Positions 53,376 to 53,654 of a stretch of DNA of 64,000 nt are shown piece after piece; the stretch's first letter is position 1, and each line of letters begins with the position of its first letter. Location: positions 96,001 to 160,000 of IMG/VR virus record IMGVR_UViG_3300017991_000051; one strand, given 5' to 3'. The position numbers and the translations under genes are program-made. The stretch is from a virus. The notes below the pieces were generated by a model. That model did no database searches and was not told the DNA's origin. It worked only from the letters and a program-made list of their open reading frames with translations.

Positions 53376-53578
53376 GGTTCTCACTATGCATCCAACTCAT
53401 GTCGTCGTTCTGGGCATCGTTCTCGGTTAGGTTCACACGGTCGCCTCGGGGGCAACACCTACTCGGCGGTTTGTACGGTTATTGTGGGTATCATAGACAC
53501 GATGACTCGCACTAGCTCATCGGGTAACAACTACAAAGCGGCTCGTACACTCCCGACGGGTATTATTCAAATCACGAC
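53376..53578 (-). ncRNA. TIGR-like dual-repeat array, about 6 units, abutting the tRNA-Ala 3' end
   Basis: Motif A at 53376, 53412, 53450, 53486, 53522, 53558; motif B at +18 each. Confidence 0.8.
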
Positions 53579-53654
53579 TGGTGGAGGCAGAGGGATTCGA
53601 ACCCACGGCCCCAAGCTTGCAAAGCTCGTGCTCTACCAACTGAGCTATGCCCCC
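53579..53654 (-). tRNA. tRNA-Ala(TGC)
   Basis: GGGGGCA/TGCCTCC acceptor with G3:U70, TT-TGC-AA loop, encoded CCA. Confidence 0.95.

Follow-up and report, generated by a model that had tools for sequence, protein, structure and literature searches.

A phage tRNA-Ala and a TIGR guide array share the terminal A of the tRNA

When a guide array abuts a tRNA gene, two questions arise: where one RNA ends and the other begins, and whether the junction serves the guides, the tRNA or neither. Such a locus lies in the 64,000 nt stretch analysed here (the window), which corresponds to positions 96001–160000 of a complete 169,252-bp phage record (G000) with direct terminal repeats. Six short units precede a phosphoesterase gene and a second array on the minus strand, and a tRNA-Ala stands at their head. 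We examined the identity of the array, the exact position of the junction and its recurrence elsewhere.

The plus strand carries the motif GGGYAWC at 53412, 53450, 53486, 53522 and 53558, and a degenerate copy at 53376, each with a second motif at +18 nt. All six units that the earlier note had placed by these two motifs were found, the one at 53376 in its degenerate form. The units were scored with a matrix trained on the other array only, that is, on the 18-unit block at 52026–52674 (minus strand; block B). The six-unit chain (block A) reached 102.5 bits, whereas no chain elsewhere in the genome scored above −10.8 and three shuffled genomes gave −23 to −55. Over 9161 nt spanning the array region, the sequence agrees at 100% identity with a Logan contig of run SRR6963352, and the tRNA–array junction is thus independent of any single assembly.

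In the TIGR register, the units of block A start on the minus strand at 53579, 53543, 53507, 53471, 53433 and 53397. Unit 1 (53544–53579, 36 nt) has both edge pairs, G2–C35 and U3–A34, intact. Its loop is the only one among 24 that does not pair, with an A–C mismatch between box D and box C, and the unit may be decaying. Units 2 (53508–53543), 3 (53472–53507) and 5 (53398–53433) were assigned by register and matrix score. Unit 4 (53434–53471), assigned by register, is 38 nt long with an 11-nt spacer B. Unit 6 (53362–53397), also assigned by register, is the weakest at 7.6 bits. It ends at 53362, 7 nt into the following gene; its spacer B contains the ATG of that gene and its closing half-edge is coding, yet both edge pairs are intact. 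Block B adds 18 units with the same repeats, one of them 37 nt long. A third mini-array of three units, again with the same repeats, lies outside the window (G000:C1:17853–17961, minus strand) and stops just ahead of the start codon of a 307-aa ORF.

The units are 36 nt long; edge repeats alternate with loop repeats, each unit has two variable 9-nt spacers, and no two spacers are identical. Both repeats hold a UG-like box D and a CCA-like box C. Box D pairs with box C by Watson–Crick pairing in the loop of 22 of the 24 units, and across the unit in the edge of 21; the third base of box C is variable, in contrast to the canonical CCA. In the structure of TasR, two edge base pairs join both ends of one processed guide (PMC12045711). 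The two corresponding edge-stem pairs form within 23/24 and 21/24 of the present units, against approximately 12 in shuffles (p 1.5e-5 and 7e-5), whereas the same edge positions inside one genomic repeat pair in only 13/22 and 7/22 cases. Pairing within the unit rather than within the repeat is expected from the structure of TasR (PMC12045711). Block A by itself forms 11 of its 12 edge pairs, a count that is reached in 12 of 720 permutations. When spacers were compared with the phage genome for self-targets, the best matches covered 13–15 of 18, equal to those of shuffled spacer pairs.

Watson–Crick covariation is symmetric between the strands. The strand call therefore rests on the published scaffold, on the SpTIGR array and on the flanking genes and tRNAs, which are on the minus strand. 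The published register reads AGCCA, spacer A, 9-nt loop, spacer B and UGCG (bioRxiv 10.64898/2026.07.15.738680). Both the TIGR identity and the minus-strand orientation that had been proposed for the array are well supported. By every sequence feature tested, the system belongs to dual-repeat TIGR-TasA.

The genome encodes one Tas protein, a TasA of 347 aa (G000:4005–5048, minus strand; NF052498, 132 bits with a cut-off of 100). This Tas is found by NF052498 but escapes the Pfam profiles Nop (PF01798) and Transposase_20 (PF02371). The PDB matches of the protein are TasR (9MTY) and TasH only. Residues Y317 and H324 align with Y289 and H296 of SpTasH and are invariant in 10 sequences; a Tyr/His dyad has been reported as the metal-independent guide-maturation dyad in dual-repeat Tas. 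An N-terminal RuvC or HNH domain is absent and the protein starts approximately 10 residues before the coiled coil, so we class it as TasA and not as TasR or TasH. It also contains an insertion of approximately 110 aa. Approximately 24 kb, including the terminal repeat, separate the gene from the array, and no array was detected adjoining it. As it is the sole Tas in the genome, we infer that TasA serves these arrays in trans. Near tas (L003, G000:C1:5988–9318) there are a tmRNA and a gene matching phrog_4652, of unknown function.

The tRNA-Ala(UGC) was located by ARAGORN at 53579–53654 on the minus strand (Rfam RF00005, 69.8 bits). It is 76 nt long and its CCA is encoded. The slot expected for the second motif, at 53576, overlaps the 3′ end of this tRNA, as had been claimed. 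The earlier note also had the array starting on the minus strand directly after the CCA; the orientation holds, but the start does not, since the terminal A of the tRNA is shared. A76 of tRNA-Ala is nucleotide 1 of tigRNA unit 1 (53579, minus strand), and the overlap between the two is one base. Position 1 is A in 24/24 units, and the published scaffold begins with AGCCA (bioRxiv 10.64898/2026.07.15.738680). The end of the tRNA fits eight of the nine edge-repeat positions and lacks the conserved G before A1. With one base shared, cutting of a single transcript cannot yield both an intact tRNA and an intact guide 1 unless repair follows. The minimum-energy fold of the tRNA plus two units has a z of −0.33. 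The T-loop of tRNA-Ala, 18 nt upstream of the junction, looks like an edge repeat; it occupies the slot of a loop repeat, and we regard the resemblance as a coincidence.

Between tRNA-Ala and the array there is no space for a promoter or a terminator. A scan for σ70 promoters, the type to which it was confined, found none in the region scanned upstream. The first 10 nt of the tRNA overlap the end of an upstream short ORF (stop at 53645) in the ORF list and gene calls. These three features argue strongly that the tRNA and the array are very likely co-transcribed. The whole region is tightly packed, and the CCA of a tRNA-Asp runs directly into a ribosome-binding site; other tRNAs of the phage stand just as close to the genes that follow them. 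A further tRNA, with a UAU anticodon and called as Ile, is found at 51517–51590; this anticodon is unusual in bacteria, and the CCA is not encoded.

The gene between the two blocks (52673–53368, minus strand) encodes a calcineurin-like metallophosphoesterase of 231 aa (PF00149, E 1.4e-13; phrog_1649). It is bracketed exactly, with its ATG within unit 6 and its TAG stop providing the first two bases of block B. In an unrelated phage locus (L032:8938–10832), three short TIGR blocks are arranged around tas and a gene for a PNK3P-like HAD phosphatase.

Patterns for the exact junction, which do match the window, were scanned over IMG/VR, GTDB and JGI metagenomes, the last at the exact offset only. 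One contig of 3.5 kb (L015; Ga0307411_10026484, a JGI metagenome, also present in an ENA assembly) has a tRNA-Gln(UUG) whose A76 opens a nine-unit array. The repeats of this array are SpTIGR-like, and 18/18 edge pairs are intact (one is G–U). The contig is without tas, and a vWA gene comes after the array. L015 is an independent case, since it differs from the window in its tRNA, in its type of repeat and in the genes nearby. The A76 junction, although rare, thus occurs more than once. A further tRNA-like sequence, with UUC in its anticodon loop and missed by ARAGORN, immediately precedes the tRNA-Gln (L015:2100–2170, minus strand).

No further real case was found in IMG/VR and GTDB at exact or nearby offsets. 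Variable-offset scans of the same two collections gave many TIGR arrays, none adjoining a tRNA, and a peak at a gap of 21 in these scans was traced to a T-loop-like word formed inside arrays. Three other hits were rejected: L013 (IMG/VR, tRNA-Ser) has one pattern-forced unit with broken pairs, L014 (JGI) has no tRNA, and L016 (JGI, tRNA-Asn) has at most one plausible unit and was taken as chance. Close relatives with an empty or an occupied tRNA-Ala site were not found. On a contig with a close Tas homologue (L034:8253–8900), a tmRNA is followed, 35 nt after its end, by a TIGR array of seven units with an ACA-type box C in the loop repeat.

We noted that arrays also begin on protein-coding genes in a comparable manner. 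The sample comprised 131 array blocks in fetched loci (L011–L147), with 76 long ORFs ending −50 to +37 nt of the first unit. The stop codon ends at +1 in 12 of these and at +2 in 16 (28/76), and every other offset occurs four times or fewer; the sample was drawn by motif search and includes related phages, so these counts describe a pattern and not a rate, and the 28 are not independent events. Sixteen of the 28 ORFs match a Tas profile, two more look tas-related by eye and approximately 10 are other genes, among them the phosphoesterase of this phage with its TAG at the start of block B. The simplest account is that arrays are transcribed along with the gene upstream of them and are packed to the maximal overlap that the sequence allows: for a stop codon this is one or two bases, for CCA a single base. 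Most simply, the tRNA junction is the RNA-gene form of this stop-codon rule. If Tas cut at a stop-codon junction, the result would be a non-stop mRNA and perhaps a feedback on tas. In one locus (L029:10687–11047), the array begins within the tas reading frame, and the last residues of the protein are read from array sequence.

We consider it probable that block A forms the upstream part of a dual-repeat TIGR array served in trans by TasA, and that the junction arose from this habit of overlap. A single transcript would carry tRNA-Ala, six guides, the phosphoesterase message and 18 guides. TasA would bind each 36-nt unit and cut in the middle of the edge repeat. The loaded TasA would bind 18-bp DNA targets without cutting; other TasA proteins have been reported to bind DNA without cleavage (bioRxiv 10.64898/2026.09.09.750476). 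The array would begin on the last base or bases of the upstream gene, usually a stop codon and here CCA. The bases 5′ of the first-unit A are not conserved, which argues for such an origin of the junction.

Two fates of the shared base can be envisaged if this reading holds. TasA may cut between C75 and A76; guide 1 would then be complete, and the tRNA would stop at C75 and depend on end healing and on the CCA-adding enzyme of the host, which could put A76 back. Metal-independent RNA cleavage usually leaves a 2′,3′-cyclic phosphate, and the tRNA end at C75 would probably carry one. Alternatively, nucleases that mature the tRNA may cut at or beyond A76, in which case the tRNA would be intact and guide 1 damaged, with guides 2–6 normal. 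Both cuts may happen, on different molecules. The phage genome has no match to a CCA-adding enzyme or to the RNase Z family. The edge supplied by the tRNA has no G before A1, and TasA may for this reason not cut at the junction. Minimised arrays needed full edge repeats for processing (PMC12045711), which also speaks against a Tas cut there. TaTasR has been reported to be required for processing but not to catalyse it, which argues against self-processing by TasA.

It is also conceivable, but in our estimate unlikely, that host tRNA 3′ processing by an RNase Z-like enzyme releases the pre-tigRNA and sets its 5′ end, and that the junction was selected for this. Zero spacing in two independent cases, the window and L015, would fit such selection. 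Box C/D guides, which are relatives of tigRNAs, offer a precedent, as RNase Z processes plant tRNA–snoRNA and Nanoarchaeum tRNA-Val–sRNA precursors (PMC3491384; refs 66-67 of PMC12045711). The geometry speaks against it, however, since a cut after CCA would strip unit 1 of its invariant A1. TasA retains the self-processing Y/H dyad, which would make tRNA processing unnecessary for guides 2–6, and neither block B nor the third mini-array has a tRNA upstream. In yeast, arrays of tigRNAs spaced by tRNAs did less well than plain arrays, although the host was foreign (bioRxiv 10.64898/2026.07.30.739390). Of the proposal in the earlier note that tRNA processing makes the 5′ end of the guide precursor, the co-transcription is thus likely to stand and the junction recurs in L015, but by its geometry the mechanism is off by one base.

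More doubtful still is a reading in which the overlap itself was selected. TasA would then act as a tRNA 3′ endonuclease or as an off-switch; its cut between C75 and A76 would free and process tRNA-Ala or inactivate it, and the phosphoesterase, together with the host CCA-adding enzyme, would heal the end. By the same logic, cuts within stop codons would produce non-stop mRNAs for the phage tmRNA, and this phage does encode a tmRNA. The match of the tRNA end to 8/9 edge-consensus positions and the two intact edge pairs of unit 1 are consistent with a cut at this point. Processing is metal-independent, and general chemistry leads one to expect a cyclic-phosphate end. Some calcineurin-like phosphoesterases open such ends (PMC2190708), and the unrelated L032 locus also has a phosphatase gene between its array blocks. 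On the other hand, there are two tRNA cases only, the array in L015 is followed by a vWA gene and no phosphatase, the phage is without a CCA-adding enzyme, and the activity of the phosphoesterase on RNA ends is putative. Packing alone, moreover, predicts maximal overlap. If the reading were true, the position of arrays on stop codons and CCA ends would mean that Tas, in maturing its guides, also trims the upstream product at its 3′ end, tas mRNA included; such feedback at the RNA level is not described for TIGR systems in the literature searched.

That a mobile cassette, made up of the array alone or of the array plus the phosphoesterase gene, integrated at the 3′ end of tRNA-Ala, the other origin suggested in the earlier note, is very improbable: tRNA 3′ ends are common integration sites and the G+C content of the arrays is 48–51% against 57% for the window, but the last 10–14 nt of tRNA-Ala occur once in that orientation genome-wide (L015 shows no such duplication either), the complete genome has no match to PF00589 (tyrosine integrase) or PF02371 (IS110 transposase) in a search confined to these two families, the phosphoesterase gene has the 57% G+C of the genome, and the third mini-array, with the same repeats, sits elsewhere without a tRNA.

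SpTIGR-TasH (Salicola phage CGphi29), TaTasR and FpTasA (PMC12045711) have the same 36-nt units, 9-nt loop and edge repeats and two 9-nt spacers as the system described here. Dual-repeat TIGR-Tas also shares the two end-to-end edge pairs and a Nop-domain Tas with the Y/H dyad (PMC12045711), and the SpTIGR array likewise opens with a half edge. The present system differs from these in its much more variable repeats (the third base of box C is free, and boxes D and C covary in each unit), in its distant TasA with the insertion, in the splitting of the array by the phosphoesterase gene and in the first unit, which shares A1 with the CCA of a tRNA. A natural tRNA–TIGR junction was not found in the literature searched, which took in few subscription papers.

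Outside TIGR systems, tRNA-Val–sRNA8 of Nanoarchaeum equitans (PMC3491384) and plant tRNA–snoRNA genes likewise have a box C/D-type guide directly behind a tRNA in one precursor. In these dicistrons, RNase Z cuts after the tRNA, no shared base is reported and the guides direct RNA methylation, whereas here a predicted DNA-targeting tigRNA array, presumably cut by its own protein as in related systems, shares one base with the tRNA. The engineered tigRNA–tRNA arrays in yeast (bioRxiv 10.64898/2026.07.30.739390) also place a tRNA beside a tigRNA on one transcript. Those arrays are synthetic, have tRNAs between the guides and are less efficient than plain TIGR arrays; the arrangement here is natural, with a single tRNA at the head.

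The junction bears on how TIGR arrays are expressed, on the 5′ end of the first guide and on how arrays are seeded. tRNA ends at C75, if seen, would mean that Tas cuts at the boundary of the array even where the edge repeat is incomplete, and that it touches translation. Ends at A76, if seen, would mean that the first guide is sacrificed. The array starts on stop codons, whether of tas or of another gene, bear on the origin of arrays and on a possible self-regulation of tas. The junction also connects tigRNAs with the tRNA–box C/D precursors of plants and archaea.
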